Positions 36,196 to 56,846 of a DNA stretch of 64,000 nt are shown piece by piece. The notes below the pieces were generated by a model that did no database searches, was not told where the DNA came from, and saw only the letters and a list, made by a program, of their open reading frames with translations. Source of the stretch: an uncultured Parcubacteria group bacterium. Its GTDB lineage: Bacteria; Patescibacteriota; Patescibacteriia; UBA9934; CAMTUG01. The position numbers and the translations under genes were made by a program. Numbering within the stretch: position 1 is the stretch's first letter; every line of letters starts with the position of its first letter. The DNA lies in the NCBI GenBank assembly GCA_947084965.1, contig CAMTUG010000001.1:211914-275913 (forward strand), given 5' to 3'.

Positions 36196-37071
36196 TCAGC
36201 CGGTGTGAGATGATCCTTCCTGCCGCAGATCGTGCAGGAAGTGATTTTTTGCGAGGAAGCTGTCGGCCAGGTACTGGCGACGGCCGATGAGGTCGAGGGG
36301 GATGAGCCCGGTTGCTTCCTGTCCGCGCAGGTGGAAGGTGCGGCCCACGATCCGGAACCGATCTGCGAACCAGCCGCTCGTGGTCACGTCGAACCCGCAG
36401 GTCAGGTCGAGGATCCGGTAGGGGAGATCGAGGTCCTGCATCGTCTCCATGATCTCGCCGACGCCACCGGCCCGCGGGGCGAGCGTCGTCCCGGGCCAAT
36501 CCGTGAATCCAGGGATCTTTGTCCCGAAGTTTTCGCGGTCTCGCGCGAGTTTCTGTTCTGACCAGCGGCTCTGATCGACGAAGATCACGAGCGTTGTCCC
36601 TGGGAGGAAGACGCGCGGGACTTCGGTCCGCAACGTACGCTTGGCGGACGCGGTGCTCGCACGGTTGATGAACATCCCCATCTTCGCCGCGGCGATCGCT
36701 GTGCCGAAGAACGGGATGAACTGGTAGAGCTTGCGGGCCACGAAGGCGAGGTGCGGCCGGGCGGCCCGCCGGGTCAGGGCGTGGATGAACGGAACGGTCT
36801 CGAGCGTTGCGGGGTGGTTGGCGATCGCCAGCACCCGGTCGTTCGGGGCGAACGTCGGCCAGGGGCCTGGGTCATCGATCGTGACTCCCATCGGGACGTA
36901 CAGCTCGTTCCACACCGCTCGCGCCCAGATTGCAGGCATCCGGCTTGCCTGCACCTTGCCCGTCGCTCCGTACCAGCCGAGCGCGTTCTGGTGGGTGCGC
37001 CAGCCGGCCGCCAGCGTCATCGAAATCCCCGGCCACAGTGGGTCGGGGACTGGCCGTTGCAGTGCGTTCAC
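36196..37071 (-). CDS. lysophospholipid (1-acylglycerol-3-phosphate) acyltransferase-family protein, high GC, GTG start
   Basis: NHPATLE (HxxxxE/D acyltransferase motif). GGAGGAGG SD 7 nt before the GTG at 37071, directly downstream of typA. About 66% GC versus about 52% for typA. Confidence 0.5.
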   Translation of the reverse strand: MNALQRPVPDPLWPGISMTLAAGWRTHQNALGWYGATGKVQASRMPAIWARAVWNELYVPMGVTIDDPGPWPTFAPNDRVLAIANHPATLETVPFIHALTRRAARPHLAFVARKLYQFIPFFGTAIAAAKMGMFINRASTASAKRTLRTEVPRVFLPGTTLVIFVDQSRWSEQKLARDRENFGTKIPGFTDWPGTTLAPRAGGVGEIMETMQDLDLPYRILDLTCGFDVTTSGWFADRFRIVGRTFHLRGQEATGLIPLDLIGRRQYLADSFLAKNHFLHDLRQEGSSHTG

Positions 37072-37087
37072 TGAACCTCCTCCGGCC

Positions 37088-38893
37088 TTAGCCGTTGTTG
37101 GATTTTTTGCGTTGCGTGGCGTCCAAAATTGCTTTACGAATGCGCAAAGATTTTGGTGTTACTTCAAGGAGCTCGTCTTCGCCCAAGTATTCGAGCGACG
37201 TTTCGAGCGTCATCTGGCGCGGGACATCAAGCCCGGCGGACGGGCCGTCACCCTTGGAGCGCATGTTGGAGAGTTTCTTTTCTTTGCACGGGTTGACTTC
37301 CAGGTCCTCGCCCTTGTTGTTTTCACCGATGACCATCCCAGCGTAGACCTCGGTACCAGGTCCGACGAACATCACCCCGCGTTCCTGCAGGTTGGCGAGG
37401 GAATAGCCCATCGTTTCTCCGTTTTCCATCGAAATCAAGGAACCGTGCGGGTTAGTGGCGATCTCCCCGATCTCTGGGCGGTAGCCCAACAGAAGGGTGT
37501 TCAAAATCCCTTGGCCTTTGGTGTCGGTCATAAACTCTGTGCGGTAGCCGATCAACCCACGGGTTGGAATGTCGAATTCCATGAAGGTCGTGCCGTTCTC
37601 AACTTTCATATCCTTCATTTCGCCTTTGCGGCGACCCATCTTTTCAATCACCACCCCACCGAATCCTTCTGGGCATTCAATCGAAACAGCTTCGAACGGT
37701 TCGTTTTCGACTCCGTCGATCGTGCGGTAGATGACTTTCGGACGCGAGACTTGGAATTCGTATCCTTCGCGGCGCATCTTTTCAATCAAAATGGCGAGGT
37801 GTAATTCACCGCGGCCGCTGACATGGAACGTCCCTTCGCCTTCGCCAGCGAGAATTTTCAAAGCGACGTCATTTTGGAGTTCACGTTCCAGACGTTCTTT
37901 GATGTTGCGGGCAGTAGAAAACTCACCTTCACGCCCAGCGAACGGGGAGGTGTTGACCGAGAAAGTCATTTTGACCGTCGGTTCTTCAATATGCATGACC
38001 GGAAGGGCGACGGGGTTGGCAGCATCCGCAATCGTTTCACCGATCGTCACATCTTCAATACCAGAAAGCAAAACAACTTCGCCCGCTTCGGCCGATGCGA
38101 CCTCCTTTTTATTCAATCCTTCAAAGACCTGAAGGGCGGTGATGCGGGCAGATTTCATCTTTCCGTCGCGGTCGATGTGCATCACGTTCATCCCGACTTT
38201 GGCCACGCCGTTGACCACGCGACCGATCGCCGAGCGGCCCTTGTAGTTATCATACAAGACGTTGATGACCGAAAACTGGAACGGCTTTGCGGCGTCGCCG
38301 GTCGGGAGCGGAATGTGTTCTACAACCGCGTCCAAGAGCGGGGCGATATCTTTCATTGATTCCATTTTCGGTTCTGGACCGGCCACACCGTTGATCGCCG
38401 AAGCGTAAACAACGGGGAAGTTCGCCTGCTCTTCGGACGCCCCGAGGTCAATAAAGAGATCGAATGTCTTGTTTAAAACCCAGTCCGGTCGAGCTGCCGG
38501 CTTGTCGATCTTGTTGATCACCAAAATGATTTTGTGTCCGGCTTCGATCGCCTTTTTGAGTACAAACTTGGTTTGCGGCATCGGCCCTTCCTTGGCGTCA
38601 ACCAACAGGAGACAGCCGTCAACCAAATTCATGATGCGTTCAACTTCGCCGCCGAAGTCGGCGTGGCCAGGGGTGTCGACGATGTTGATTTTGACGTTGT
38701 TCCAATTGATCGAACAGTTCTTGGCCAAAATGGTAATCCCGCGTTCGCGTTCCAGCTCGTTGCTGTCCATGATGGTGGTACCCATCGCGTCGGCGTTGCG
38801 GAAGGTGTTCGATTGTTTAAGCAAAGCATCCACGAGCGTCGTTTTGCCGTGGTCAACGTGAGCGATAATAGCGATATTGCGGATGTCTTGCAT
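37088..38893 (-). CDS. typA: translational GTPase TypA/BipA
   Basis: MQDIRNIAIIAHVDHGKTTLVDALL, DTPGHADFGGEVER, NKIDK. Collinear with E. coli BipA over the full length. Start at the ATG of MQDIRN (38893). Confidence 0.9.
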   Translation of the reverse strand: MQDIRNIAIIAHVDHGKTTLVDALLKQSNTFRNADAMGTTIMDSNELERERGITILAKNCSINWNNVKINIVDTPGHADFGGEVERIMNLVDGCLLLVDAKEGPMPQTKFVLKKAIEAGHKIILVINKIDKPAARPDWVLNKTFDLFIDLGASEEQANFPVVYASAINGVAGPEPKMESMKDIAPLLDAVVEHIPLPTGDAAKPFQFSVINVLYDNYKGRSAIGRVVNGVAKVGMNVMHIDRDGKMKSARITALQVFEGLNKKEVASAEAGEVVLLSGIEDVTIGETIADAANPVALPVMHIEEPTVKMTFSVNTSPFAGREGEFSTARNIKERLERELQNDVALKILAGEGEGTFHVSGRGELHLAILIEKMRREGYEFQVSRPKVIYRTIDGVENEPFEAVSIECPEGFGGVVIEKMGRRKGEMKDMKVENGTTFMEFDIPTRGLIGYRTEFMTDTKGQGILNTLLLGYRPEIGEIATNPHGSLISMENGETMGYSLANLQERGVMFVGPGTEVYAGMVIGENNKGEDLEVNPCKEKKLSNMRSKGDGPSAGLDVPRQMTLETSLEYLGEDELLEVTPKSLRIRKAILDATQRKKSNNG

Positions 38894-38968
38894 AAATCTG
38901 GGTAAACCTATTAACGGGCGGATTATGCCCCGAAAGTGGCGTCTTGTCAACGATTGGCCTAGAATAAA

Positions 38969-39493
38969 ATGATTATGGCTGATCTCTTGTCCCTCTTTCT
39001 GATCGTTTTGTTGGTTTCCCTAGCCGTTGCTGCTCTTTCTTTTGCGCCGTGGGTGCCGGTGCCGAAAAAGGAATTGCGGCGCATTCTCGGGCTTGCTGAG
39101 CTCAAGACAGGAGAGGTCTTTTATGATTTGGGATGCGGTGATGGGCGAGTCGTTTTTGCGGCGGCCGAGATCCCGGGAGTACAGGCGGTTGGTATTGAAC
39201 TCGCATTACCGATGTATCTTGTCTGTCGGATTAAACAGGTCGTTTGGCCTGAGGCACGACGGGCGAAGATCCGGTTAGCGAACTTTTTTCGTGTCGATCT
39301 TCAGCATGCGGACGTCATCTATCTGTTCGGTGTGCCGCGGACTTTGCGTACACGATTGACGAACAAGCTCAAAGCCGAGTGCAAGCCAGGGACCCGCGTC
39401 CTGTCTTATGCGTTTCCTGTTGACGGGTGGTCATCGATGGCTGAAGACGTTCATCCACAGAGCGGTGTAACGATTTATCGCTACGTGTTATGA
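38969..39493 (+). CDS. class I SAM-dependent methyltransferase with N-terminal TM helix
   Basis: Motif I VFYDLGCGDGRVVF. Alternative ATG at 38975. Confidence 0.6.
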   Translation: MIMADLLSLFLIVLLVSLAVAALSFAPWVPVPKKELRRILGLAELKTGEVFYDLGCGDGRVVFAAAEIPGVQAVGIELALPMYLVCRIKQVVWPEARRAKIRLANFFRVDLQHADVIYLFGVPRTLRTRLTNKLKAECKPGTRVLSYAFPVDGWSSMAEDVHPQSGVTIYRYVL

Positions 39494-39524
39494 TGAAACT
39501 ATTAACCCTTAATGTTCCTTCGTT

Positions 39525-39737
39525 ATGATGCATGAGAAGATGTGCGGCGTGCACAAGATCGGTGCCGCCCTTGTGGTTGTCGGTGCGATTAACTGGGGCC
39601 TGATCGGACTCCTTCAGTGGAATCTGGTCGAGGCAGTGCTCGGAACGGGGACCGTGACCCGCGTCGTGTACATCCTTGTCGGTTTGGCGGGCATCGCCAT
39701 GCTCGGGATGTGTAAGTGTTCGGGATGTAAAAAGTAA
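39525..39737 (+). CDS. DUF378-family small membrane protein
   Basis: 70 aa. KIGAALVVVGAINWGLIGLL...VVYILVGLAGIAML pattern typical of DUF378. Confidence 0.65.
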   Translation: MMHEKMCGVHKIGAALVVVGAINWGLIGLLQWNLVEAVLGTGTVTRVVYILVGLAGIAMLGMCKCSGCKK

Positions 39738-39740
39738 GGA

Positions 39741-39762
39741 AACGATCTTCGGATCGTTTTTT
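39741..39762 (+). terminator. intrinsic terminator AAACGATCttcgGATCGTTTTTT
   Basis: 8-bp stem, tetraloop, and a U6 tail. Confidence 0.7.
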
Positions 39763-39836
39763 GATAAAGGCGGGCTTTCGGGCTCGCTTTTGGTTTAACG
39801 GCAGCGCCCCCAGGGAGTGTCCCTGAGGGCGTGGCG

Positions 39837-40445
39837 TTAGCCGAGAGCGGAGAGGATGATCCAGCGGATGTCGTCCGCGGATTCGATCTCTCGTTCGGGA
39901 GGGCAGCGGAGTGTCAGAACGCGATCGTCGGGCGTGAAGAGTCGTCGGATCCCGCAGAGCTCGCGGCGGTCGAGCATCTCAGAGACGGGGTCTTCGACGA
40001 CCCCGCGCGTCTTGTTGCTGGCGTGGATCACCGTTCCTTCGCCGGTTGCGAAGACGACATGTCCGATCCCTTGGTTTGGGTCGGACTCGTAGCGGTTGAT
40101 CCATCCTTTGGTGAACAGAAGGTCGCCCATGATCGGCGGTTGATCTGGCTCGATCCCTTGGCCGAAGCGGAACTGCTGGATCGCTCGGCGCGGCAGATCG
40201 ATTCCGCGGTGACGGTAGAGCCACTTCATCAGGCTCGAGCAGTCGAAGACGCTCGGGGCCTCGCGAAGACGCGCGCCGCGGCGGTAGGTCGAGCCGATGG
40301 CGCTCCGTGCAGTGGCGAGGAGGTCGACGTCGATGACCTCGAAGCCACGTTCCGCGAGGATGTTGATCGCTTCGTCATCTGTCATCGGCAAGTGCATCTG
40401 TCGAACGCTCACCGCCTGGCGGTTGCCGTGTCCTCGAAAGTCCAT
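39837..40445 (-). CDS. NlpC/P60 (C40) family cell-wall peptidase, high GC
   Basis: FDCSSLMKWLY (catalytic Cys) and IGHVVFATGEGTVIHAS (His). GAGGT SD before MDFRG. About 66% GC. Own terminator hairpin at 39775-39833 on the minus strand. Confidence 0.65.
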   Translation of the reverse strand: MDFRGHGNRQAVSVRQMHLPMTDDEAINILAERGFEVIDVDLLATARSAIGSTYRRGARLREAPSVFDCSSLMKWLYRHRGIDLPRRAIQQFRFGQGIEPDQPPIMGDLLFTKGWINRYESDPNQGIGHVVFATGEGTVIHASNKTRGVVEDPVSEMLDRRELCGIRRLFTPDDRVLTLRCPPEREIESADDIRWIILSALG

Positions 40446-40531
40446 GTCATACCTCGGTGGGCGCATTCAAACATAGATGAACAGATAAATCCATGTGCAG
40501 GTTCAGGTCCCAAACCGTGTCTGCGGGACTA

Positions 40532-40639
40532 CTCAAAAAATAATTTCCGCAAAGTGGAAGTACACAGGGTTTATTTTATACTAAGCTTAGTAAAAATTGA
40601 GGTCTATGTACTTCCACTTTGCGGAAATCTATTTTTGAG
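40532..40639. repeat. MITE-like element: 33-bp terminal inverted repeats (CTCAAAAAATAATTTCCGCAAAGTGGAAGTACA / TGTACTTCCACTTTGCGGAAATCTATTTTTGAG) around a 42-bp AT-rich core
   Basis: Arms match 31/33. Outer flanks GTTCAGGT...ACCTGTCAAC are also partly complementary. Lies between two minus-strand genes. Confidence 0.55.
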
Positions 40640-40736
40640 TACCTGTCAACCTGACGAGCTTACCTTAAAGAAGACGCGAATCATCGACTCGCATGGTGAA
40701 GCATTCGGCTTCGATCAGGTCATTTACAGGACCTGA

Positions 40737-42758
40737 TTACCGGATAAACGTAAACACGGTTGTGGCGCCGTTTGAAAGAGAGATCCAGTGGTCGGCTTCG
40801 CGTTTAGCGTTTTCGATGACTTTGTCAGACATCCACCAATAGTCGTTGACGACGAAGTAGGCGGTGTCGACGTCGGCCAGATTCATCGCTGCTTCAGCGC
40901 GTTCTCGGGTCGGGCCAATGTTGACCATTTCGAGATACAGTTGATAGAGCGGTCCACCGGTCGGGATCGGGTAGTAAAAGATATCGCCCTCGGAATATTT
41001 TAAAAATCCATATTCTTGCACGGCCGCGGCACTCACGGCCTGGTTGGCAAGAACAACGTAGTCGATGGTACTCGTATCAGAGAGCCCATGAATGTAGCGC
41101 ACCGTTTCGAAATCAGATTGCCCGACGTTAAATCCACGGCTGATCTCGTAATTATCATGACGCGGGTAGGTCATGTACACACTAGCGGTCAGGATCATGG
41201 CGGTGAGAAGAGTGAAACCGAAGCGGAGCGGAGCTGGTTTTTCTTTCAGAACTTCGAAGATGCGTCCGACCACGATTCCCAGAATTGGCAAGAGCATGAA
41301 CTGCATCATCTCGAAGATGCGCGCGCTGTAATTGCTCCGTTCATAGTCGATCAAAAAGTCAAAACCGATCAGGGTGGAGAGAAGCAGATAGTTGATCAGC
41401 ATGATCGCTGGAGGAAAGAGGAAAGAGGAAAGAGGAAAGGCGGGGCCGCTGCGTCCCGCAATACGGCGAAGGATGATAATCCCAGCGATCGTGAGGGTGA
41501 GAAGAATCAAGATGCGATTCCATCCGAAGAGATATGCGGCATCAAGAAAGGGATGGAAGCGATTTTCGACAAAAAGGTGCAAGCCGAGGAGCTCCGTCCA
41601 TGGCGTGGTGAAGATATTTTTGAAAGAAAGGGTGACGTTGAGACCAGAGATCTTGGCGTTCAATAAAAAGATCGCAGGGAGTGAAATCGATCCGAGGCCA
41701 GCGGTCAGATAGCCCAGGCGTTTGTAATCGCGGGTGAACAGTTCAAGCAAAACGGCGTAGATGATGATTGGGATGCCAGCGAGTGGATGAGTAAAAACAG
41801 CGGCGACGGCGAAGATCCACAATGCGAGATGATCCTGGTTGGTGCGTTTTTCTTTTTTAAGCAGGGGGATCGAAACGAGAATGGCGGCGAGCGACCAGGT
41901 GTTGGCGAGAGCTTGCGGGGTGGTGGCGATGAACGACGAAAGGGGGAGGAGGAAGAGGACAAGAGCGCCGGATTTTAATGAGCGCCAAGCGAGGAGCGGA
42001 AGCAATAGCCCGGCGAGGAGGGGAACAAGGTAGCTGTCCGCCAGCGCCACCGGAATTGAAAATCCATGCGCGGCGATCAGGACAAGGGCGTATTGTCCGG
42101 CGTAGTAGAGCGGCTTGGGGGTAATGGTGCCGTGTTCGAGGATGTGTGATTCCGTCGCTTTATGGATGAAGGAATCAAATCCGTAGCCGAGCGGGTAGGA
42201 GAGAAGGGCGACCGAGATCGTAAGTAAGAAAAAGATGGTCAGGGTTAGGCGGGACGGTTTGCTTGCGAGCAAGAGGGCGAGGAAAAAGATTCCGATAAAA
42301 AAAGCTGTCGGAATGACGAGCCAGGGGGAGCGGACCGGTTCGATGATCTCCGTTCGTGTGAGGATGGAGGTGGTGGCAAGAATGATAAATAGGAAGAAAG
42401 TGGTAAGTGGTAAGTGGTAAGTGGAGGGGCGGGAGAGGAAAGAGGAAAGGCGGGGCCACCGTGTCCCGCCACTGGTCTGCATCGGTCGCCAGAAACAGAT
42501 GAGGGGGACAGCGATCACCACACCCGTTGCGAAGGGGAGAGTGAGCAGGTCGAGATAGTAAGCGATCCCTCCGAGAATGGAGAGGAGGGCGATCAGCTGT
42601 GCCGCACCGATAGGACTTCGGCCGTAAAACAGTAGCATCCCAGCAAGGAGCACGAGCCCCAACCACGTCGCCTGAAGAAAAAAGGCGTTGGCAACAAACA
42701 GGACTAGAAAAACAAGGGAAACGGTGATATATTTAAGAAGTGATCCTACCGATTGCAT
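40737..42758 (-). CDS. large polytopic membrane protein (>12 TM) with C-terminal extracytoplasmic domain, glycosyltransferase-like; start uncertain
   Basis: Long frame 40737..42812. Start chosen at MQSVGSLL to avoid overlapping the divergent gene. Carries two in-frame heptamer-repeat + GC-hairpin inserts (41409-41459, 42399-42470). Confidence 0.5.
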   Translation of the reverse strand: MQSVGSLLKYITVSLVFLVLFVANAFFLQATWLGLVLLAGMLLFYGRSPIGAAQLIALLSILGGIAYYLDLLTLPFATGVVIAVPLICFWRPMQTSGGTRWPRLSSFLSRPSTYHLPLTTFFLFIILATTSILTRTEIIEPVRSPWLVIPTAFFIGIFFLALLLASKPSRLTLTIFFLLTISVALLSYPLGYGFDSFIHKATESHILEHGTITPKPLYYAGQYALVLIAAHGFSIPVALADSYLVPLLAGLLLPLLAWRSLKSGALVLFLLPLSSFIATTPQALANTWSLAAILVSIPLLKKEKRTNQDHLALWIFAVAAVFTHPLAGIPIIIYAVLLELFTRDYKRLGYLTAGLGSISLPAIFLLNAKISGLNVTLSFKNIFTTPWTELLGLHLFVENRFHPFLDAAYLFGWNRILILLTLTIAGIIILRRIAGRSGPAFPLSSFLFPPAIMLINYLLLSTLIGFDFLIDYERSNYSARIFEMMQFMLLPILGIVVGRIFEVLKEKPAPLRFGFTLLTAMILTASVYMTYPRHDNYEISRGFNVGQSDFETVRYIHGLSDTSTIDYVVLANQAVSAAAVQEYGFLKYSEGDIFYYPIPTGGPLYQLYLEMVNIGPTRERAEAAMNLADVDTAYFVVNDYWWMSDKVIENAKREADHWISLSNGATTVFTFIR

Positions 42759-42779
42759 ACCGCCGTATTCTATCATGTT

Positions 42780-43355
42780 ATGGCTCGCGATCCATCGCTT
42801 CTCTACCCGCATGACCGTATTTTAGCGAAAACGGTTTTGCCACTCATCCCTCGCGTCGTGACACCGAATCATGTCACGATCTTTCGCTACGGCACGATCC
42901 CCTTCATCATCTATTTTTTGTTCAACGAGAATTATCTGATCGGATTGCCGCTCTTTGTTTTTTCTGCCTGCACGGACGCGATCGACGGCTCACTTGCACG
43001 TACGCGTAAAATGATCACTCGCTGGGGGACGTTTTATGACCCGGTCGCTGATAAACTGCTGATCATGAGCACGATCCTCCTCCTTGTGTTTCGTTTTCTC
43101 CCACCGTGGTTTGCGGCGGTGATCGTCCTGCTTGAATTGCTGATCGGCATTGGCGGTTATGTCTATCGTAAGGAAGGCAAGATGCAGAGCGCTAACGTCT
43201 TCGGGAAGTGGAAGATGTTCGCTCAGAGTACTGGCGTGACCCTTATTTTGGCGGCGGCGGCGTTTGGGGCGCCATGGCTCATTCCGTACGCCATGGTTAC
43301 CCTTTCCGTGGCTATCGTGCTCGCGGTTATCTCGCTCTATACCTACGGCTTGTGA
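42780..43355 (+). CDS. CDP-alcohol phosphatidyltransferase family protein
   Basis: D-x2-DG-x2-AR-x8-G-x3-D-x3-D motif (TDAIDGSLARTRKMITRWGTFYDPVADK). Multi-TM. Start could be 42753 or 42780. Confidence 0.7.
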   Translation: MARDPSLLYPHDRILAKTVLPLIPRVVTPNHVTIFRYGTIPFIIYFLFNENYLIGLPLFVFSACTDAIDGSLARTRKMITRWGTFYDPVADKLLIMSTILLLVFRFLPPWFAAVIVLLELLIGIGGYVYRKEGKMQSANVFGKWKMFAQSTGVTLILAAAAFGAPWLIPYAMVTLSVAIVLAVISLYTYGL

Positions 43356-46726: not shown

Positions 46727-46772
46727 GCGAGGGCCATCTTGTTGTGTGGCGGCCCTCGGGGCCGTTTTTGTT
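46727..46772 (+). terminator. GC-rich hairpin(s) + T-run (GAGGGCC...GGCCCTC / GGCCCtcgGGGCC + GTTTTTG)
   Basis: Alternative overlapping stems also include CACAACAAC...GTTGTTGTG (46694-46747). Lies between the 46322 gene and the HAD gene. Confidence 0.45.
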
Positions 46773-46782
46773 TATCAAGCCT

Positions 46783-47430
46783 ATGACCAATTACAAACAG
46801 ATTTTCTTTGACTTTGACAGTACCCTCGTCCGTGTCGAGACTCTGGATCAACTCGCTTCTGATCCCGTGAAGCGAGCAGAGGTTGAAGCTCTGACCAACG
46901 CGAGCATGAACGGGGATCTCTCCTTTGCCGAGGTGTTTCCGAAGAAGATGGCGATTCTTGCTCCGTCGATCGGTGACTTAGAAGCGCTTGCTCAGCGTTG
47001 TATGGATGAGTGGCTTGTCGCTGGGGTACGCGAAGCGATTGAGCGCATTCAGGCGAACGGAGGGGAGGTCTGGATGATCACCGCCAATTTTCATCCGCTC
47101 GTTGATCCCGTTGCTGAGCATCTCGGCATCCCATCTGAACGCGTGCTGGCCAACACGATCTGCTTTGATGAAGAGGGGAACTATCTTCGTTGCGAAGCGT
47201 CGGTATTGATGGGCGATGGCGGAAAGGCGGTGGCGATGCGGCCGTGGGTTCGTAACCGTGAGGAGGCGGTGATGATCGGGGACAGTGTCAGTGATCTGGC
47301 GTGCGCAAGTGAGGTCGGACTTTTTGTCGGGTTCGGAGGCGTGGTTGTCCGGCCTGCGGTCCAACATGCGGCATCGGTTTTTGTTGAAGAACCCAACATG
47401 CTGGCCGTCCTTCGTCATCTTTATCCTTAA
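46783..47430 (+). CDS. HAD-superfamily hydrolase, phosphoserine-phosphatase-like (subfamily IB)
   Basis: FFDFDSTL (DxDxT), later MIGDSVSD. About 215 aa. Confidence 0.65.
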   Translation: MTNYKQIFFDFDSTLVRVETLDQLASDPVKRAEVEALTNASMNGDLSFAEVFPKKMAILAPSIGDLEALAQRCMDEWLVAGVREAIERIQANGGEVWMITANFHPLVDPVAEHLGIPSERVLANTICFDEEGNYLRCEASVLMGDGGKAVAMRPWVRNREEAVMIGDSVSDLACASEVGLFVGFGGVVVRPAVQHAASVFVEEPNMLAVLRHLYP

Positions 47431-47493
47431 GGGTTTTCCTCTGCCGTTGTCGTCCTGATGACGGTAGTCTGAACTCTTGAGGAGGAATGACCG

Positions 47494-48834
47494 ATGTCCG
47501 AAGCCATCGACTTTCACAGCCCGCTCCCGTACCGTCGCGCTGACATGAGCGCCTACTGCCGCCAGAAGGGGGTCACGCTCATCGAGCATCCGTCGGTCGA
47601 TTGTTCGGCTCTCGGTTCGAGCGATTCCGCTGTGCCGCGGGGGATCGATCCGTTCGCCTGGGCGCACTTCTGGTGGCCGCGGCTGCACGCCGCCGCTCTC
47701 GGGGATCTCGGAGCGCTCTGTGCCACGCGCTTCCCGGGGGAGATCCTTCCCGGACCGGGCGGCCACGGGGCGACCTGTGTCACGGAGCGCCTGGCCTACG
47801 GGCGGTACCAGAGCTTCCGGAGCGACCAGCGCCTGCTGCCATCCGTGCCGGCGTTCGCGCGCCGCAAGGTCGGCGCGATCGCCGACTGGCCCTGGGGAGA
47901 AATTCGGGAACCCCAGCTCGAAGAGGTCGTCTTCAATCTCGATCCATCGAACGCGACCGACAAGCCGTTCGACGTCGACGGGATCACCTGCGATCCCGAG
48001 GGGATCCGCGTGATCAGCCGTCTGTGGTGCCCGGGGAAGGAACATCTGTGGAGCCGGCAGGAAGAGACGATCGAGCGTTTCCTGAGCTTGCTTCCTGAGC
48101 CCGTCCGTCCGGCGGTCCTCGCCTTCGAAGTCGAAGAGTGCCTGGCGCACGCTTACGAAGCACGTGAGTGGAACGGCCACGGGCACGGGATGTGCAACGG
48201 GGTCTGGCTCGAAGTCGGCCTGGCAGCGATCGAGAAGATCCGCCCGACCGAGCTCGCCGTCACCGCGCGCATCGCGGCTGAACTCATCACCCTGACGGAG
48301 TCCGGGTTCGCCCCGATCGTGGTCAACGAGTGGGGGTGTGACACCGACGGCACCCACCGCCTGATGGCCGCCTGGATCTTCAACCTCTGCCGCGACCTCG
48401 ATCCGTCCGTTCTCGCGAACCTGGACGTCGGTTGTCGCTTGGTTCACGTGAAGGAGCGGCTTCGTCTCTGGCTCGACGCGCGGATCGCTCCGTTCGTCCG
48501 CCCGCGGCCGCTGATCGTCCGTGAAGCTCTGCGCTTCCTTGCCGAAGCGATCCGTGATCCCGACCTCCTCGCCACGCTGATCGAGGTCGTCCGTCGCGCC
48601 AAGCACGCTCCGCCCGTGGCTCGACTGCCTGTGACCTTCCTGCGTGAAGCAAGTTGGGGAACGGTGGTCAAAGGACCGTACGACAGCGGGGAAGCGATCA
48701 TCCGGGTCGATCCGCGGATCTACGCCGAACTGGCGGATCACCCGCATCTGGTCCTGCCGCCGCGCGGGCCTTACCACATGACCGACGAGCTCGAGATGCT
48801 CTGGTTCGACGTCTTGCGCATCAACGCGACCTAG
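47494..48834 (+). CDS. hypothetical protein (446 aa), high GC
   Basis: GGAGGA SD. About 67% GC. No recognisable motif. Own terminator. Confidence 0.5.
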   Translation: MSEAIDFHSPLPYRRADMSAYCRQKGVTLIEHPSVDCSALGSSDSAVPRGIDPFAWAHFWWPRLHAAALGDLGALCATRFPGEILPGPGGHGATCVTERLAYGRYQSFRSDQRLLPSVPAFARRKVGAIADWPWGEIREPQLEEVVFNLDPSNATDKPFDVDGITCDPEGIRVISRLWCPGKEHLWSRQEETIERFLSLLPEPVRPAVLAFEVEECLAHAYEAREWNGHGHGMCNGVWLEVGLAAIEKIRPTELAVTARIAAELITLTESGFAPIVVNEWGCDTDGTHRLMAAWIFNLCRDLDPSVLANLDVGCRLVHVKERLRLWLDARIAPFVRPRPLIVREALRFLAEAIRDPDLLATLIEVVRRAKHAPPVARLPVTFLREASWGTVVKGPYDSGEAIIRVDPRIYAELADHPHLVLPPRGPYHMTDELEMLWFDVLRINAT

Positions 48835-48859
48835 CCGCTCGTTCGCGTGACTTCTTGTC

Positions 48860-48897
48860 CGGCCCGCCAGTACGTGGCGGGCCGCTGACATTTTTTT
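48860..48897 (+). terminator. intrinsic terminator CGGCCCGCCAgtacgTGGCGGGCCG + T7
   Basis: 10-bp perfect stem. The CCAGTACGTGG core is shared with the hairpin at 50849-50871. Confidence 0.65.
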
Positions 48898-48951
48898 AAG
48901 GGATTGTTGTATACTAGTCGTGAGCATCATTGATTCATTACAGGAGATTCT

Positions 48952-49359: not shown

Positions 49360-49360
49360 T

Positions 49361-49903: not shown

Positions 49904-50037
49904 ACAATCAGAAGGTCAGCCGATTGACAGGTCGGTTGATTTTTTGTATTGTCTTTTCTTCTTCGGCAGGAGCCGGAGGAGATTCAGGCACCGTACTTGG
50001 TGCATCACCACCCCGCAGGAGCGGGAACGGAGCAGAG

Positions 50038-50826
50038 ATGAACGGCAATCTGATGGTCGACAAAGGTCGTGAACGTGAAGACGGCATCCAGGACCGCGAA
50101 GAGCGGCTGGTCGCGGTCAACGCCCTGCTCGCAGAGCGGCACCTGAAGCCGCGCGGCAAGCTCGGGCTCGCCAGCGAGAACGAGCAGGAGATCCTCGGGA
50201 TCTACCACATCGACGACCGCACGCCGCAGTTCCACACCACCATCTACTACGCCGTCCTTCTGAAGGACGGCCGGGTGATCGAGCTCCCGGTGCGCTACAA
50301 CGCCAACGGGGACAAGTGCGACGGGGTCGTCTTCGTCATCCTCCTGAACGGCACGCACCTGGTGCTCGTCAAGGAGTGGCGTCACAGCCTCGCCGAGTGG
50401 GTGACTGGCATCCCGCGCGGCTTCACCGAGCTCGAGGACGTGATGCAGATGCCCCAGGGCGGCCCGATCGGCAACCCGGCCGACCTCAAGATCCCGGCGC
50501 TGCGCGTCCTCTTCCGTGAGCTCGGCGAGGAGGTCGGCGATCCCTCGACGCTCGCCCTGACGCAGATCGCCTTCCTCGGCAAGGTCTACCAGAACACCGG
50601 GACCGACTCGGCCGCCCCGGACTACGTCCTCCTCTCCCTCCGCGGCCCGACGAACTTCAAGTCGACGCCCAAGGACCCGGACCACAAGGTCCGCGTCTGG
50701 AGCGTGGAGCAGGTCCGCGAGGCGATCGGCGGGGAGCTGAACGACAGCCATACGCTCACCGCGCTGGTCCTCCTCGAGCGGTTCGCTCGTTCGCTCTCCG
50801 GAGCGCCTGCGGGCCGCTTCCTGTAG
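50038..50826 (+). CDS. NUDIX-like hydrolase, high GC
   Basis: GIPRGFTELEDVMQMPQGGPIGNPADLKIPALRVLFRELGEEVG (Nudix-box-like RELGEEVG). GGAGCAGAG SD. About 66% GC. Confidence 0.5.
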   Translation: MNGNLMVDKGREREDGIQDREERLVAVNALLAERHLKPRGKLGLASENEQEILGIYHIDDRTPQFHTTIYYAVLLKDGRVIELPVRYNANGDKCDGVVFVILLNGTHLVLVKEWRHSLAEWVTGIPRGFTELEDVMQMPQGGPIGNPADLKIPALRVLFRELGEEVGDPSTLALTQIAFLGKVYQNTGTDSAAPDYVLLSLRGPTNFKSTPKDPDHKVRVWSVEQVREAIGGELNDSHTLTALVLLERFARSLSGAPAGRFL

Positions 50827-50848
50827 GGTCCCCGACCCTGTCGCTTCC

Positions 50849-50885
50849 GCCGGTCCAGTACGTGGGCCGGCGTTGCGTTTTCTGC
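50849..50885 (+). terminator. terminator hairpin GCCGGTCCAgtacgTGGGCCGGC + T-rich tail
   Basis: Stem with one G-U pair. Shares the CCAGTACGTGG core with 48860-48884. Confidence 0.55.
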
Positions 50886-50940
50886 ACTGATAAACAAGGC
50901 GATTGACGGGGCAAAAGCTCCATACTAAGATGCCACTGCT

Positions 50941-51960: not shown

Positions 51961-51967
51961 TGCGCGT

Positions 51968-52810
51968 ATGAAAATTTTGATCATCGGTCGCGGATACATG
52001 GGAGAGAGGATTCATGCCGCTTGGCCAGATTCGATTTTGTCAGATGCCATGATTGCGGATAAAGCATCGATGCTGGCGGAACTTCGTAAGCACGAGCCGG
52101 ATGTAGTCTTGAACGCCGCGGGGGTGCGCGGCCGCCCCAACGTGGATTGGTGCGATGACAATCAACTGGAGACGATTCGGGGAAACACCTTGCTCCCCAT
52201 CATCATGGCCGATGCTTGTGCGGAAGCCGGTGTCTATCTGCTGCACATGGGTTCAGGGTGCATTTTTTACGGTCCGTCTCAGCACCCAGATCACGCCTGG
52301 CGCGAAGAGGATTTTGGGAATCCCAAGCCGACCTATTCGCGTTCCAAGTACGCCGCTGACCTTGTCCTTTCAACCTTGCCTAACGTGGGGATCGCCCGCA
52401 TCCGTATGCCTATCGACCACATTCCTTCACCAGGGAATCTGATCGACAAGCTTTCTTCTTTTGCCAAAGTGGCCGATGTGGAAAACAGTGTGACGATCGT
52501 CGATGATATGATCGATGTTTTTCATCAACTGTTGGAAAAGCGTGCTCAAGGGATTTTTCATGTGGTCAATCCTGGGACGCTCAAGTTTCGTGATCTGATC
52601 GCGTTGTACGAAGAGTTGGTCGACCCAACACACACCTGCGAGTGGGTCAGTGACGACGCCTTAAACGCCGCAGGGATCAACAAAAAACCGCGCTCCAATA
52701 ATTTCCTTTCCTCGGAACGATTGAAAGAAGCGGGGATCACCGTTCGTCCGGTTGCTGTGGCTTTGCGCGACACGATGCAAAAGTACGCAGAAGCAAAAAA
52801 AAAGATGTGA
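51968..52810 (+). CDS. NAD-dependent sugar-nucleotide epimerase/reductase, RmlD (dTDP-4-dehydrorhamnose reductase)-like
   Basis: MKILIIGRGYMG N-terminus and YSRSKYAAD (YxxxK). About 280 aa. Confidence 0.55.
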   Translation: MKILIIGRGYMGERIHAAWPDSILSDAMIADKASMLAELRKHEPDVVLNAAGVRGRPNVDWCDDNQLETIRGNTLLPIIMADACAEAGVYLLHMGSGCIFYGPSQHPDHAWREEDFGNPKPTYSRSKYAADLVLSTLPNVGIARIRMPIDHIPSPGNLIDKLSSFAKVADVENSVTIVDDMIDVFHQLLEKRAQGIFHVVNPGTLKFRDLIALYEELVDPTHTCEWVSDDALNAAGINKKPRSNNFLSSERLKEAGITVRPVAVALRDTMQKYAEAKKKM

Positions 52811-53670
52811 ACGGACAAGCAAAGCCACAGATCAGCCTGATCATCGTGAGCTTGAACGTGCGTGATTTGCTCCGCAAGAATTTGGATTCTATTTTTTCTA
52901 CCGACTCCGCCTGCACGTTCGAAGTGATCGTGATCGATAATGGATCGGAAGACAAAACAGCCAGAATGGTCCGCGAGGATTTTCCTCAGGTACATCTGAT
53001 TCAGAACGACTACAATTCGGGGTTTGCCCACGCCTGTAACCAGGGTCTTGCCGTAGCCCAGGGCGATGTTCTTGTCTTGTATAATCCAGATATGCTTATG
53101 GGCGATGGGGTCCTTGATCACACCTGGAACACGCTTACGTCCCGATCAGAGATTGGTGTCCTCGGGGTGCAGTTGCGCAAAGAAGACGGATCGTTGGTGC
53201 GTTCCGTCCGGCGTGATCCGGGGCTTCAAGACCAGTTGGCGGTTTTGCTCAAGCTCCCGCATCTTTTTCCAAACGTCGTGAAGCAGTACCTGGCCGAAGA
53301 TATAGACCAGCGGGTGAGTCAAGAAGTCGAGCAGCTGCGTGGTTCGTATTTCGCTTTCCGTCGTGATGTCATGGAGAAGATCGGCGTGCTGGACGAAAAG
53401 AACTTTTTTGTCTGGTTTGAAGAAGTCGATTTTTGCAAACGTGTCCGTGCGGCTGGGTTGAAGGTTTGGTTTAGCGCCGAAGTTTTCTGCACCGACCTTG
53501 TTGGCCAGACGTTTAAAACGCAGCCCACGGCGTTAAAGCAAGCACGATTCTCAAAAAGTTTGGCCAATTATTTTAAAAAGTGGCATCCGCGCTGGCAGTC
53601 CGTCGTCATCACGATCCTTCGTCCGTTGGCGATTGCTGCTGGATACGCCCACGATCTATGGCGACGTTAG
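52807..53670 (+). CDS. family 2 glycosyltransferase
   Basis: ISLIIVSLNVRD...EVIVIDNGSEDKT... GT-A DxD-type N-terminus. Confidence 0.75.
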   Translation: MNGQAKPQISLIIVSLNVRDLLRKNLDSIFSTDSACTFEVIVIDNGSEDKTARMVREDFPQVHLIQNDYNSGFAHACNQGLAVAQGDVLVLYNPDMLMGDGVLDHTWNTLTSRSEIGVLGVQLRKEDGSLVRSVRRDPGLQDQLAVLLKLPHLFPNVVKQYLAEDIDQRVSQEVEQLRGSYFAFRRDVMEKIGVLDEKNFFVWFEEVDFCKRVRAAGLKVWFSAEVFCTDLVGQTFKTQPTALKQARFSKSLANYFKKWHPRWQSVVITILRPLAIAAGYAHDLWRR

Positions 53671-54521
53671 TCCTTCAACTCGGGACCCATCATCGCACGG
53701 AAACGCTTCCGGCGTTATTCGCGTCGCTTTCATCGCAGACAGACAAAGATTGGACTCTGTACTGGTGTGATGACGCTTCGACGCCAGAAGAACGGGCGAT
53801 GATGCGTCAGATTCTCGAGGAATCACATCCCAGTTACACCGTCGTGACAGCGGACAGCGATCTGAACATCGGTTTTTCTGGCGTGCACGAGCGATTATAC
53901 GAAATGCACGATGCGGATTACGTGATGCTCGTCAATGACGACGCGATTCTCGAGCCTGGTTATGTTGCCGGGCTTCGGGCCCATCTCGATACGCACCCGG
54001 ATGTTGCTTCTGTCAGCGGAAAGATTCTTCGTTATAACACGGATGCATCTGGCGCTATTGTGAAGACGGAGGTGATTGATTCGCTCGGCTTAGCACGAAC
54101 GCGCTATCACAAAGTGTATGATATCGGAGCGGGGGAGCGAGCGCCGGAGATGATAGGGCCGGTACAGGTTTTTGGTGTCTCTGGCTGTCTGCCGATGTAT
54201 CGTCGAAGCGCAATCGGCGATCAACTGTTTGATCCTTCATACTTCATGTATAAAGAAGATGTTGATGTCGCCTATCGTCTACAGGCCGCGGGGTTTGAGG
54301 CGGCGATCGTGCCGGAGGCCGTTGCGTATCACAAGCGTAGTTTTCGCAAGTCCGTATTGCACCTGGGCGTTTCTCGTAAATCACAATGGCTGTCGTATCG
54401 CAATCATTGGCGCAACTTGCGCAAGCATCTCACCTTGAAAGATTGGCTCTTAGATGGTTGGGCCATCCTTCCGTTTGAAGCGGCGAAGGCGATCTTTATG
54501 CTCGTTCGATCTGTTGTATGA
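53658..54521 (+). CDS. family 2 glycosyltransferase
   Basis: WTLYWCDDASTPEE, VMLVNDDAIL. Start MATLVLQL overlaps the upstream stop. Confidence 0.65.
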   Translation: MATLVLQLGTHHRTETLPALFASLSSQTDKDWTLYWCDDASTPEERAMMRQILEESHPSYTVVTADSDLNIGFSGVHERLYEMHDADYVMLVNDDAILEPGYVAGLRAHLDTHPDVASVSGKILRYNTDASGAIVKTEVIDSLGLARTRYHKVYDIGAGERAPEMIGPVQVFGVSGCLPMYRRSAIGDQLFDPSYFMYKEDVDVAYRLQAAGFEAAIVPEAVAYHKRSFRKSVLHLGVSRKSQWLSYRNHWRNLRKHLTLKDWLLDGWAILPFEAAKAIFMLVRSVV

Positions 54522-55318
54522 AATACGATATCGCTATTGTCACCGTTTCTACCAACATGCTCCATGAAGCCTGTCTGACTTCGGTTCGGCAGTTGATGGA
54601 TGCCACCCCGCTCAAGATCGCGTTTGTCCTCGTTGATAACGGTTCCACGAAATTTAATGCCCATGCGCTCGCCAAATCACACCTCAAAGAGGCACACGTT
54701 ATTTTGCGCAACGGCAATCATGGGTTTGGGCGCTCTAGCAATCGTGGCGCACGAGAGGTTGAAGCGGACTACTATTTCTTTTTAAATCCCGACACCTGCA
54801 TTAAAGATCTCACCCTGCTTTCACGACTGCATGACTTCATGAAGCAACATCCGAAGGTGGGGATCGCTGCGCCAAAGATTTTGTACATGGACGGCCGGGT
54901 GCAAGAAACGTGTCGTCGTTTTCCAAGCTGGTTTGCTCCGATCGCCCAGCGCACCAAGCTGTTACCGAAGAAATTAACCGAAGAGCATCGTAAGCGATTT
55001 TTGATGGAGGACTTTGGGCACAACAAGCGCCGGATGGTTGATTGGGTGCAAGGAAGTGCGTTCATGATTGAAGGCGAGTTGTTTCATCAGTTGGGCGGAT
55101 TTGATGATCGTTTTTGGATGTACTATGAGGACGTGGACTTGTGTCGCCGTTCTTGGAACGAAGGTCGACCGGTGTATTACCTGCCTGATGTGGAAATTTA
55201 TCACGCCTATGGCAAAGAGTCGGCCAAGGTGGAAGGGATCGTCAGCGGGATCGTCAAAAACAACAAAGCACGTCAGCATATTTTGAGCTGGATGAAGTAC
55301 ACCTTAAAGTGGCTATGA
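54518..55318 (+). CDS. family 2 glycosyltransferase
   Basis: IAIVTVSTN...FVLVDNGS...YFFLNPDT. Confidence 0.7.
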   Translation: MKYDIAIVTVSTNMLHEACLTSVRQLMDATPLKIAFVLVDNGSTKFNAHALAKSHLKEAHVILRNGNHGFGRSSNRGAREVEADYYFFLNPDTCIKDLTLLSRLHDFMKQHPKVGIAAPKILYMDGRVQETCRRFPSWFAPIAQRTKLLPKKLTEEHRKRFLMEDFGHNKRRMVDWVQGSAFMIEGELFHQLGGFDDRFWMYYEDVDLCRRSWNEGRPVYYLPDVEIYHAYGKESAKVEGIVSGIVKNNKARQHILSWMKYTLKWL

Positions 55319-56370
55319 ATCCATTAGTCGTAGTTCAAATTCTTCTGTACAACGAGCCGTTCGATGGGATCGATCGGTTGCTTGCTTCGCTTGAGGCAGT
55401 CGATTATCCGCTTGGTCGCTGGAAGGTGGTGATCGTCAATAATCAATGTGCGGGTTTTGATATTGCCGGACATTTTGAAAAGAAATGGCGGGCCAAGGTC
55501 GGCGTGTCGCTTCCGGAAACGGTTTTTCAGGTGCAGAAAAATAATGGGTTTGCCGGTGGACACAATTCTGCTCACGCGATCAGCAAAACGTTTCACCCGG
55601 AGTATATCTACTTGCTGAATGGGGATGCGCATGTAGACCATCAGTTTTTGTGGCGAGTGGTGCAGGCGGCGGAAGCACATCCGAACGCGGCACTCGTTCA
55701 GTCGCGCATCCTGTTAGATCAAGATCGCGAGAAGATTAACTCGATCGGCAATGCGTTGCATTTTCTCGGGTTTGGGTTTTCTAAGACGACCGATGAATCT
55801 TCTCTCCCGACCTTTTATGCTTCTGGTGCGGGGGTGTTGATTCGCACGGCGATGTTGCACGGACGGATGTTTGACGACGGGTATTTTATGTATCACGACG
55901 ACGTTGATCTTGGCTGGCGTGCTCGGCTGGCCGGTCACGATATTGTGATCGCCAATGATTCCGTGATTTATCATCACTACGAGTTTTCGCGCAGCATTAA
56001 AAAGTTTTATTGGATGGAACGCAATCGTCACCTGACCAATCTTGCCAATTATAAACTGGGCACGTTGATCTTGATCGCACCCGCGGCGATCATCATGGAG
56101 TTCGGGACACTGATTTTTGCGATCAAAGGTGGGTGGGCGAAAGAAAAAGTCCGCTCGTGGCTGCATTTCTTTAAACCGTCCACATGGAGATGGATTTTCC
56201 GTACCCGTTACGAAGTCGCTGGTTTGCGCAACGTGACCGATCGCGTGATTCTTTCAAAGATGGTTGGGGTAATCGAGAATCAGGAAACAAATAATCCATT
56301 CGTTCTCTATCTCGTTAATCCGCTGATGTCCTTGTATCTCGTCATCCTGCGCACCCTTGTCAGGTGGTAG
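55309..56370 (+). CDS. family 2 glycosyltransferase with C-terminal membrane segments
   Basis: VVVQILLYNE...VVIVNNQ...LLNGDAHV. C-terminal TM helices. Confidence 0.7.
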   Translation: MAMNPLVVVQILLYNEPFDGIDRLLASLEAVDYPLGRWKVVIVNNQCAGFDIAGHFEKKWRAKVGVSLPETVFQVQKNNGFAGGHNSAHAISKTFHPEYIYLLNGDAHVDHQFLWRVVQAAEAHPNAALVQSRILLDQDREKINSIGNALHFLGFGFSKTTDESSLPTFYASGAGVLIRTAMLHGRMFDDGYFMYHDDVDLGWRARLAGHDIVIANDSVIYHHYEFSRSIKKFYWMERNRHLTNLANYKLGTLILIAPAAIIMEFGTLIFAIKGGWAKEKVRSWLHFFKPSTWRWIFRTRYEVAGLRNVTDRVILSKMVGVIENQETNNPFVLYLVNPLMSLYLVILRTLVRW

Positions 56371-56408
56371 GGAACGTGATACGTTCACCCGTCCCAAGGA
56401 GGTCTTTC

Positions 56409-56846
56409 ATGCCGTTCCGCATCCTGTTCAAGCTCTTCGGTCTCTCTGCTCTCGCTGCCCGTTTCGGACGACGGCGGGGTGTCGAGACGATCGAGGTGGA
56501 CGATACTCCGCTTCCCCTCGACGTGCAGATGGAGCTGGCGCTCATGACGATCACGGCGTTCGTCGAGGTCGGCGCCTCGGACAGGTCGCTCGCGACGATG
56601 CGGATGCTGCAGCGGAACGCAACGTTCGCGATGTACGAACAGGCCAAGACCCGGCGCGAGCGGGCGGCGGTCGATCTCTTCGCCCTGGCGATCGACTTCT
56701 GCCTGAGGGACGTCACCGTCGAGGAGTTCTCCCGAGGGGTCCAGGTGCATACGCAGACGTCTCGGCCGCTCCTGCCGCAGGTCGGGCGCCTCATCGAGCT
56801 CTTCCCGTTCCTTCGGGAGAAGATCCCCATCAGCGTTTCCTGCTAG
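56409..56846 (+). CDS. hypothetical protein (145 aa), high GC
   Basis: GGAGG SD. About 66% GC. Followed by the hairpin CCGCGCTCC...GGAGCGCGG + CTTTCGTTTT. Confidence 0.45.
   Translation: MPFRILFKLFGLSALAARFGRRRGVETIEVDDTPLPLDVQMELALMTITAFVEVGASDRSLATMRMLQRNATFAMYEQAKTRRERAAVDLFALAIDFCLRDVTVEEFSRGVQVHTQTSRPLLPQVGRLIELFPFLREKIPISVSC

Follow-up and report, generated by a model that had tools for sequence, protein, structure and literature searches.

A long-standing mosaic of GC-rich genes in a Patescibacteria chromosome, suggested by a compositional outlier that appears to be inherited with its ordinary operon partner

The DNA analysed here, a 64-kb window of a Patescibacteria chromosome (contig CAMTUG010000001.1; positions are counted from the first letter of the window), contains five isolated genes that are far richer in GC than their neighbours, namely those for an acyltransferase, an NlpC/P60 peptidase, a 446-aa protein denoted X, a Nudix protein denoted Nudix2, and a 145-aa protein. 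The pattern is a variant of intragenomic compositional heterogeneity and not a series of recent acquisitions. Comparison of gene order, protein identity and base composition among relatives argues for a long-standing mosaic, in which at least one GC-rich gene, X, is vertically inherited and GC-rich beside an ordinary neighbour throughout a clade of ultra-small bacteria.

Profiles of GC content at 500 bp and 200 bp show gene-sized jumps, from about 0.50–0.55 to 0.63–0.72, at the coordinates of all five genes. These are the acyltransferase (36196–37071, minus strand; GC 0.660, and 0.84 at third codon positions, GC3), NlpC/P60 (39837–40445, minus strand; 0.629 and 0.78), X (47494–48834, plus strand; 0.665 and 0.82), Nudix2 (50038–50826, plus strand; 0.670 and 0.93) and the 145-aa gene (56409–56846, plus strand; 0.648 and 0.87). 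The reference backbone, consisting of 45 curated genes of the window, has a GC of 0.523 ± 0.027 (range 0.45–0.58) and a GC3 of 0.591 ± 0.043 (range 0.42–0.66). Relative to this set the five genes, at GC 0.629–0.670 and GC3 0.78–0.93 in the per-gene table, reach z = 3.9–5.4 for GC and 4.3–7.8 for GC3. A first-pass annotation of the window, made from the sequence alone, had given the five as 65–68% GC with extreme GC3 against neighbours of about 50% GC; the blocks lie where it placed them and the GC3 contrast holds, but their true range is 63–67%. It had also argued against a single event, in agreement with the finding that the five are single-gene compositional units and form no single island. 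Values at first and second codon positions (GC1, GC2) are elevated as well, and the encoded proteins are enriched in Pro, Arg and Ala and depleted in Lys, Asn, Ser and Tyr. The dinucleotide difference delta* between the GC-rich genes and their own backbone amounts to 131–161, compared to 46 ± 17 for backbone subsets. This backbone is made up of housekeeping genes (TypA, RRF, TIM, an aminoacyl-tRNA synthetase, pol III delta′, L9 and CTP synthase), together with an ABC transporter and GT2 glycosyltransferases. High-GC coding sequence, i.e. the five genes plus two larger islands described below, accounts for 15.6% of the window.

All five genes are preceded by a Shine–Dalgarno motif, as first annotated. 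The companion claim of an own terminator hairpin per gene applies to the acyltransferase, X and Nudix2, each of which is followed by a canonical GC-rich hairpin and T-run; the 3′ hairpin of NlpC/P60 lacks a T-tract, and the 145-aa gene shows only a long-range stem followed by a T-run on its 3′ side. The start codons proposed for NlpC/P60 (40445) and Nudix2 (50038) are correct, all NlpC homologues beginning with M.YRAVGNRCAV. The domain assignments were likewise borne out (PF01553 for the acyltransferase, PF00877 for NlpC/P60 and a weak NUDIX match for Nudix2, with no family for the two remaining proteins).

The source organism is a bacterium of the Patescibacteria, or Candidate Phyla Radiation (CPR): the closest relatives of its TypA, at 57–77% identity, are Patescibacteria and “Andersenbacteria” metagenome-assembled genomes (MAGs), several of them mislabelled as Gammaproteobacteria. 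Exact-protein look-ups of TypA, X and a VKOR-like neighbour returned no match. The typA loci of the relatives span 0.45–0.68 GC, and several of the low- or mid-GC loci have gene-sized GC bumps of their own. Loci bearing X extend the range of the clade to about 0.31–0.72, so that this group is unusually labile in its GC content. RNase III provides a separate illustration, being 60–65% identical between L085 (113–1656; backbone of about 40% GC) and two relatives of 61–68% GC, L003 (4892–6389) and L004 (3237–4770), i.e. a 20–28-point shift in composition over modest protein divergence.

X has ten homologues among 5.8 billion proteins and is clade-specific; no family was assigned to it in Pfam, NCBIfam or PHROGs. 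Its genomic context was recovered in nine genomes, the window included (window, L081–L088). In all eight for which the upstream side is available, X is located directly 3′ of a SerB-like HAD-IB phosphatase gene (in the window at 46744–47430, plus strand, of backbone composition), on the same strand and across a gap of 17–138 nt. Judged from this arrangement, HAD and X form a conserved two-gene operon (window 46744–48834; L081–L085, L087 and L088). The pairwise identities of the two proteins correlate with r = 0.96 (28 pairs, eight genomes) and yield the same grouping: window with L081, L082 with the pair L083 and L088, and a deep group of L084, L085 and L087. The L086 contig lacks HAD and was placed in the deep group from X alone. 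The X copies of the window and L081 have 78% identity at the protein level, and the flanking genes are 64–87% identical; beyond L081, the best match to X in the 5.8 billion proteins drops to about 50% identity. Phylogenetic incongruence, a mark of acquired islands, was not found for X, as its identity matrix follows that of HAD. Taken together, the data point to vertical inheritance of X with its operon partner throughout the clade, and not to a recent insert.

The elevated composition of X recurs with the gene. In the window X has GC 0.67 and GC3 0.82 and its neighbours 0.52 and 0.59, and in L081 the corresponding values are 0.68 and 0.86 for X and 0.52 and 0.58 for its neighbours. X reaches 0.46 and 0.46 in L084 (neighbours 0.27–0.34 and about 0.20), 0.57 and 0.61 in L085 (about 0.40 and 0.30–0.34), and 0.56 and 0.65 in L086 (0.38 and about 0.30). 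In five of the six low- or mid-GC genomes X thus exceeds HAD or other neighbours by 13–18 GC points (GC3 +0.22 to +0.35); in the sixth, L087, X has GC 0.41 with neighbours at 0.35–0.41 and is not elevated. The offset vanishes in the GC-rich genomes L082, L083 and L088, where X equals its neighbours (listed at GC 0.71–0.72, with X given elsewhere as 0.66–0.69; GC3 0.84–0.88 for X and 0.86–0.91 for the backbone). Expressed as logit(GC3), the shift is near-constant at 1.07–1.5 over the five mosaic genomes, by our own arithmetic. The first-pass annotation had named relatives carrying the same gene at the same composition as the observation that would speak against acquisition, and X in L081 is such a case.

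At the junction between HAD and X the change is abrupt. GC3 over the last 25 HAD codons is 0.48 in the window, 0.44 in L081, 0.04 in L084 and 0.32 in L085, and over the first 25 X codons 0.84, 0.84, 0.32 and 0.52, respectively. In these four genomes the switch coincides exactly with the gene boundary, inside the 17–68-nt spacer, with HAD at backbone level right to its stop codon; a gradient of regional spill-over, expected for a region affected by GC-biased gene conversion, was not seen. As HAD and X are co-oriented and 17–138 nt apart they are probably co-transcribed, and expression-linked causes (transcription-associated deamination, nucleotide-cost selection) are therefore unlikely for X and were rejected. 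A conserved antisense open reading frame (ORF) across X was rejected too, since it is long only in the GC-rich versions and absent in L084.

These observations bear on the main competing explanation, in which the GC-rich genes are serial one-gene imports from GC-rich (68–72% GC) members of the same Patescibacteria clade, taken up at different dates and slowly ameliorated. For X this would mean orthologous in-situ replacement shortly before the window and L081 diverged. GC-rich relatives carrying X do exist (L082, L083 and L088, GC 0.66–0.69), and L004 is another genome at 0.68. Still, X would have to have been replaced independently at least four times (in the common ancestor of the window and L081, in L084, in L086 and in L085), in each case with gene precision, at an unchanged site and by the copy of a richer donor, and with the proportionality of X and HAD distances kept. 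The 3′ end of HAD carries no donor-like tail, and the distance of about 50% identity to the nearest X beyond L081 also counts against serial import. We regard serial import as a serious but rather unlikely account of the data.

Fourfold-degenerate sites add a time scale. X of L084 and L086 is 59–61% identical, with a fourfold-site identity of 0.30 compared to 0.25 for random sequence; the sites are saturated and yet X is elevated in both genomes, which excludes a single decaying import. Between the window and L081, A or T occurs in both at 5 of 199 fourfold sites of X (4.6 expected), i.e. the states are statistically independent. An F81-type calculation shows that decay would require a GC content at fourfold sites (GC4) of about 0.96 at the split of the two lineages, a pattern with which serial import is compatible, and one old import only just suffices for X in this pair taken alone. 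Sharing of A/T states was also tried as a test of stationarity versus decay. It first seemed to favour decay from an all-G/C ancestor, but once transitions and transversions were separated both models predicted independence and the test was dropped. Across the clade, in-situ maintenance of X would be more parsimonious than repeated replacement.

The same sites speak to the possibility that the GC-rich genes survive as relics from an ancestor rich in GC, after a drift of the lineage from about 70% to about 52% GC in which a few genes lagged behind. In the window and L081 the GC3 of X (0.82–0.86) equals that in the GC-rich relatives (0.84–0.88), and the GC content of the clade is indeed very labile. 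However, fourfold identity between the window and L081 is 0.58 for X and 0.22–0.55 for the backbone, and at synonymous sites X has diverged only about one third less. Moreover, neighbouring cistrons of one operon should decay together, X is elevated across saturated divergences, and the outgroup relatives (Andersenbacteria-like) have 45–49% GC. A relic origin is accordingly judged improbable.

Composition alone would also allow for a chimeric co-assembly of one organism at 52% and another at 67% GC, a check that the first-pass annotation had called for. This explanation is effectively refuted. The 21.7-kb Logan contig ERR3478686_2327 matches window positions 38952–59359 (20,408 bp) at 100% identity and covers four of the five GC-rich genes (NlpC/P60, X, Nudix2 and the 145-aa gene), and this second assembly rules out a chimera. 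L081, a different organism assembled independently (run SRR6488953), is collinear over both junctions of X. The same type of mosaic is found in L081, L084, L085 and L086, and in two typA relatives, L005 and L013, all from unrelated samples, and the junctions lie in intact intergenic regions with Shine–Dalgarno motifs and terminators.

Nudix2 (262 aa; weak PF00293 match) behaves differently from X with respect to its site. In L081 the gene is missing, and the adjoining NUDIX gene is followed by 188 bp and then by an epimerase gene. The synteny check proposed in the first-pass annotation thus reveals a true single-gene presence/absence difference with short direct repeats at its edges. The left repeat, CGATTGACAGG (49921–49931, plus strand; −35-like), marks the upstream edge of the insert and is promoter-like (TTGACA-17-TATTGT). 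The right repeat, CGATTGACGGG (50900–50910, plus strand), is the −35 element of the epimerase promoter and has its homologue in L081, where the element is present once. The motif CGATTGACRGG occurs twice in the 64 kb compared to 0.15 expected, both copies bracketing Nudix2, and the repeat is also detectable in a 14-nt version. The terminator hairpin 3′ of Nudix2 (50848–50872, plus strand) has a 10-bp stem and the loop GTACG. A tandem duplication of the adjoining NUDIX gene was rejected as the origin of Nudix2, the two having 29% identity over 56 aa (E = 0.08).

A parallel case was found in L005, where a GC-rich 529-aa lipoprotein gene (GC3 0.86 compared to a median of 0.53) separates the terminator of typA from the promoter of the gene that follows. 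This gene is missing from the sister genome L013; a 30-nt promoter motif is present in two copies around the insert in L005 and in one copy in L013. By comparison of the two pairs of loci, Nudix2 and the lipoprotein gene appear to have been gained or lost as single units, bracketed by a duplicated downstream promoter. Such indels with flanking repeats are in line with serial import, as is the order of GC3, which fits age: 0.93 for Nudix2, absent in L081, and 0.82 for the shared X. The first-pass interpretation is supported in part, in that the genes are single units and that Nudix2, like the L005/L013 parallel, is a true presence/absence difference; repeated acquisition from high-GC donors fails as a general account on X, and no outside donor was found. 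It should be noted that the position directly 3′ of typA, taken by the GC-rich acyltransferase in the window, is filled in the close relatives L005 (11860–14260) and L013 (5530–6260) (46–49% GC) by small GC-rich genes for membrane proteins, which have diverged so far that they are no longer recognisably alike.

The acyltransferase (291 aa; PF01553, LPAAT-like by its Pfam and NCBIfam matches) has the GTG start that had been proposed, 6 nt past GGAGGAGG and 16 nt past the typA stop with no terminator in between. Its own GC-rich terminator (36167–36195, minus strand; 11-bp stem and T-run) is placed between convergent genes. In a word-indexed search of 5.8 billion proteins its only match was itself; tblastn against 72,556 plasmids and a scan of IMG/VR gave none, and no homologue was found beside typA in 13 relatives, where typA synteny is not conserved.

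NlpC/P60 (202 aa; PF00877 at 53 bits, cut-off 23) is a member of a large, widespread family of proteins about 205 aa long, in whose alignment C69 and H129 of the Cys/His catalytic core are invariant; it has 4182 cluster representatives at E ≤ 1e-3 and 89 at E ≤ 1e-30, the best identity being about 51–53%. Of 80 metagenome loci, 45 have sufficient flanking genes for a comparison; among these, GC3 of the family member follows flank GC3 with a slope of 0.66, and the window gene sits about 0.21 above that line; none of the metagenome loci has neighbours in common with the window. Between the start of NlpC/P60 and the stop of a 691-aa gene lies an AT-rich palindrome (40530–40641) with a perfect centre and 56-nt arms that are 82% complementary. 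It is much longer than a terminator and may be an operator or recombination site. In the automatic annotation of the Logan contig (L173, 880–1785), a 301-aa plus-strand shadow ORF (window 39831–40736) stands in place of the minus-strand NlpC/P60, a gene with thousands of homologues; GC-rich genes of this genome are prone to wrong-strand annotation. The 145-aa gene, with an AAGGAGG Shine–Dalgarno motif, follows four GT2 glycosyltransferase genes in a row, and its product matched no family in Pfam, NCBIfam or PHROGs. Two further repeat candidates were attributed to chance: ACGAAGTCGC, flanking the 145-aa gene, and TTGTCCGGCCYGC, flanking X, each occur twice in the window with the upstream copy inside the preceding gene, and the upstream copy of the latter is missing in L081.

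The cassette-delivery mechanism suggested in the first-pass annotation found no support in scans of the window. No integrase or transposase domain was detected in 50 ORFs, a set that did not include a 2885-aa ORF and small ORFs, and no attC-like consensus emerged from the 3′ elements, which are 25–35-nt GC-rich hairpins with T-runs. The sole motif common to these hairpins, CCAGTACGTGG, is present in two of them (X and Nudix2). Only the larger island at 11453–15366 is near tRNA genes, and an 11–14-nt flanking repeat was found at Nudix2. A phage or plasmid link was not obtained either: PHROGs matched only the NlpC/P60 domain, which resembles phage tail lysins, the plasmid tblastn search was negative, and scans of IMG/VR with Nudix2, the acyltransferase and a protein of the first island returned nothing. 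For none of the genes that could be searched was a donor outside Patescibacteria found.

The base composition itself was compared with that of candidate donors. At fourfold sites the high-GC genes use C at 0.49 and G at 0.37, matching the GC-rich genomes of the clade (C 0.48–0.51, G 0.40–0.45), and their dinucleotide signature is closest to that of L004 (delta* 47–91, compared to 131–161 to their own backbone). Both results favour serial import from within the clade. A Rhodococcus plasmid included as control is nearly as close (82–113), with phiC31, pSymB and Thermus farther away; the signature therefore names no donor and was dropped as evidence for an L004-like one. The same control can be read in favour of acquisition from distant high-GC phyla, e.g. 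from an actinobacterial host of an episymbiont, as the first-pass annotation had implied. Ser/Thr kinases and NlpC/P60 proteins are common in Actinobacteria, a GC3 of 0.8–0.99 is typical for such donors, and the kinase island described below is about as near to the Rhodococcus plasmid (82) as to L004 (91). Against this, all eight examined contigs with X homologues show the genomic context of this clade, and the NlpC/P60 family occurs on groundwater and lake contigs of 32–63% GC that are Patescibacteria-like in appearance, at no more than 53% identity. The acyltransferase is unmatched in the plasmid set, and no gene has a donor-like match. A distant origin is therefore considered very improbable.

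To assess generality, 61 Patescibacteria-like loci (735 ORFs, crude ORF calling) were surveyed for genes deviating by more than 0.18 from the locus median GC3. This yielded 37 genes with high and 10 with low GC3, most densely in the window (9 of 59) and in L085 (5 of 18). Atypical bacterial genes are usually AT-richer than their genome, and the excess of GC-rich outliers runs counter to this trend. Conserved low-GC outliers are also present in GC-rich relatives. The gene directly 3′ of X in L082 (11412–12581) and L083 (4457–5674) is one such orthologous outlier, 52% identical, with GC 0.62 and 0.57 compared to about 0.70; gene-specific offsets consequently run in both directions. A literature search did not retrieve a description of such a pattern in CPR bacteria.

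In several respects the window resembles the islets of the Lawrence and Ochman model of horizontal transfer and amelioration. Gene-sized segments deviate in GC, GC3 and amino-acid usage amid housekeeping genes, one block (Nudix2) has short direct repeats at its flanks and is missing from a close relative, and the graded GC3 is compatible with different ages. Unlike usual islets, the outliers here are GC-richer than the genome and lack mobility genes, and X is co-inherited with a compositionally normal operon partner, its offset being kept across saturated divergences. With regard to the usual marks of acquired islands, deviating composition is thus present, absence from the site in relatives holds for Nudix2 and not for X, and mobility genes were not found. 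Phage morons and integron cassettes are likewise single genes of composition unlike their neighbours, some with their own promoter-like site and terminator and with short bracketing repeats. The context here is a housekeeping chromosome without a prophage; no IntI integrase or attC-type site was found, the 3′ hairpins are ordinary 25–35-nt terminators, and the flanking repeat is the promoter of the neighbour.

GC-biased gene conversion is the nearest known process (Lassalle et al. 2015, PMC4450053), but it fits poorly. As in bacterial examples of such conversion, GC3 is raised in particular genes with the phylogeny unchanged, the near-constant logit shift resembles a fixation bias, and the effect is gone in GC-rich genomes. 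Shifts attributed to the process in bacteria are reportedly of a few points, in contrast to the GC3 shift of +0.22 to +0.35 observed here, which ends exactly at cistron boundaries; it is the sharp HAD/X boundary that makes ordinary biased conversion a poor fit. The leukotoxin operon of Mannheimia is described as a vertically inherited operon of atypical composition, for which gene order and phylogeny indicate vertical descent (PMC2228313). The present case is similar in this regard, and differs from that description in that the offset recurs at 31–52% genome GC and concerns one cistron of an operon.

The explanation we favour, at a confidence close to but short of even, is that the five genes are genuine chromosomal CPR genes of a clade-wide, heritable GC-rich class, held gene by gene and subject to promoter-flanked turnover. 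Isolated GC-rich genes indeed recur in low- and mid-GC members of the clade. The more specific proposal of a gene-autonomous, heritable GC-raising process is put forward only tentatively. Here a class of genes including X would be held at about +1.1 to +1.5 logit(GC3) above the rest of the genome, with parallel shifts at the first and second codon positions and with edges at cistron boundaries even within an operon, whatever the genome GC (31–52%); GC-rich lineages would behave like the GC-rich class across their entire genome. Mechanistically, the GC-rich state might be kept gene by gene through a GC-favouring fixation bias, arising from selection on the coding unit or from GC-biased repair during allele exchange between relatives. 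Such a bias would amount to about +1.1 to +1.5 in logit(GC3) and would act on all three codon positions, giving each gene the look of one from a genome with about 15 GC points more. Members of the class would turn over by recombination at stereotyped promoter sequences.

Several points weigh against a heritable GC-rich class. To our knowledge, no mechanism lifts the GC of one operon cistron but not of the next, and the sharp boundary between HAD and X argues against ordinary conversion tracts. X is at backbone composition in the low-GC genome L087. Vertical inheritance is shown for X alone; the acyltransferase, for its part, is an orphan, and the polymorphic Nudix2 has a GC3 above that of the four other genes (0.93, compared to 0.82 for X), which fits a younger, less ameliorated import. 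Independent A/T states at the fourfold sites of X are also predicted by decay from a near all-G/C ancestor, and tree congruence is compatible with replacement of X from an unsampled sister lineage. Finally, the survey of other CPR loci relied on a crude ORF caller.

The function of X was approached by structure prediction. Its AlphaFold2 model, a confident one (pLDDT 81, pTM 0.87), had a best Foldseek match of E = 0.44 over 61 aligned columns (TM 0.12), with weak local likeness to free serine kinase, SbnI and ParB-N, and a profile search of the PDB gave nothing relevant. The serine kinase is only a lead, suggested by the SerB-like phosphatase that adjoins X. Membership in the free serine kinase/SbnI (ParB/Srx-like) group is not supported, as no significant sequence or fold match covers the catalytic domain; X may represent a new enzyme family acting on phosphoserine. 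The terminator hairpin 3′ of X, TTGTCCGGCCCGCCAGTACGTGGCGGGCCGCTGAC (48856–48890, plus strand), is 35 nt long and 100% conserved in L081, the DNA around it being only about 75–87% identical. It has the stem-top and loop motif CCA-GTACG-TGG in common with the Nudix2 terminator (48867–48877 and 50855–50865).

Two larger GC-rich islands, also noted in the first-pass annotation, are real. The first (829–3433) consists of small unknown genes with GC3 0.77–0.99 and strongly C-rich third positions; C makes up 60–80% of fourfold sites, A and T are nearly absent, and codon usage is distinct even from that of the other high-GC genes. Intergenic repeats of about 47 nt separate the small minus-strand genes of this island (329–379, 715–765, 1478–1528 and 1907–1957), two copies being 94% identical. 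The second island (11453–15366; GC3 0.80–0.91) comprises three genes, for a caspase-like protease, an unknown 312-aa protein and a Ser/Thr kinase. It stops about 90 nt before a tRNA cluster (15457–17451; Thr-GGT, Tyr-GTA, Thr-TGT, Trp-CCA), and neither a tRNA-derived direct repeat nor an integrase was seen at the island. The 2885-aa ORF mentioned above is a single ORF at 19900–28557 and is of backbone composition.

A quick look for atypical GC content is the usual way of screening for foreign genes and for contaminated MAGs. In the present case a GC outlier of five standard deviations, X, appears to be vertically inherited, with its offset kept in a clade of about 31–72% GC. If this is general, composition-based detection of horizontal gene transfer and decontamination of MAGs would wrongly strip native genes from Patescibacteria. 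The promoter-flanked single-gene indels would then suggest a simple route of gene gain and loss for reduced genomes without mobile elements. The clade would also be a natural system for studying what sets bacterial GC content, with neighbouring cistrons of one operon at different equilibria, and selection, biased conversion and mutation could be tested against each other directly with population data. Should the gene-autonomous proposal be true, compositional outliers in this Patescibacteria clade would be an unreliable mark of foreign origin, and base composition would be set gene by gene through an as yet unknown mechanism.

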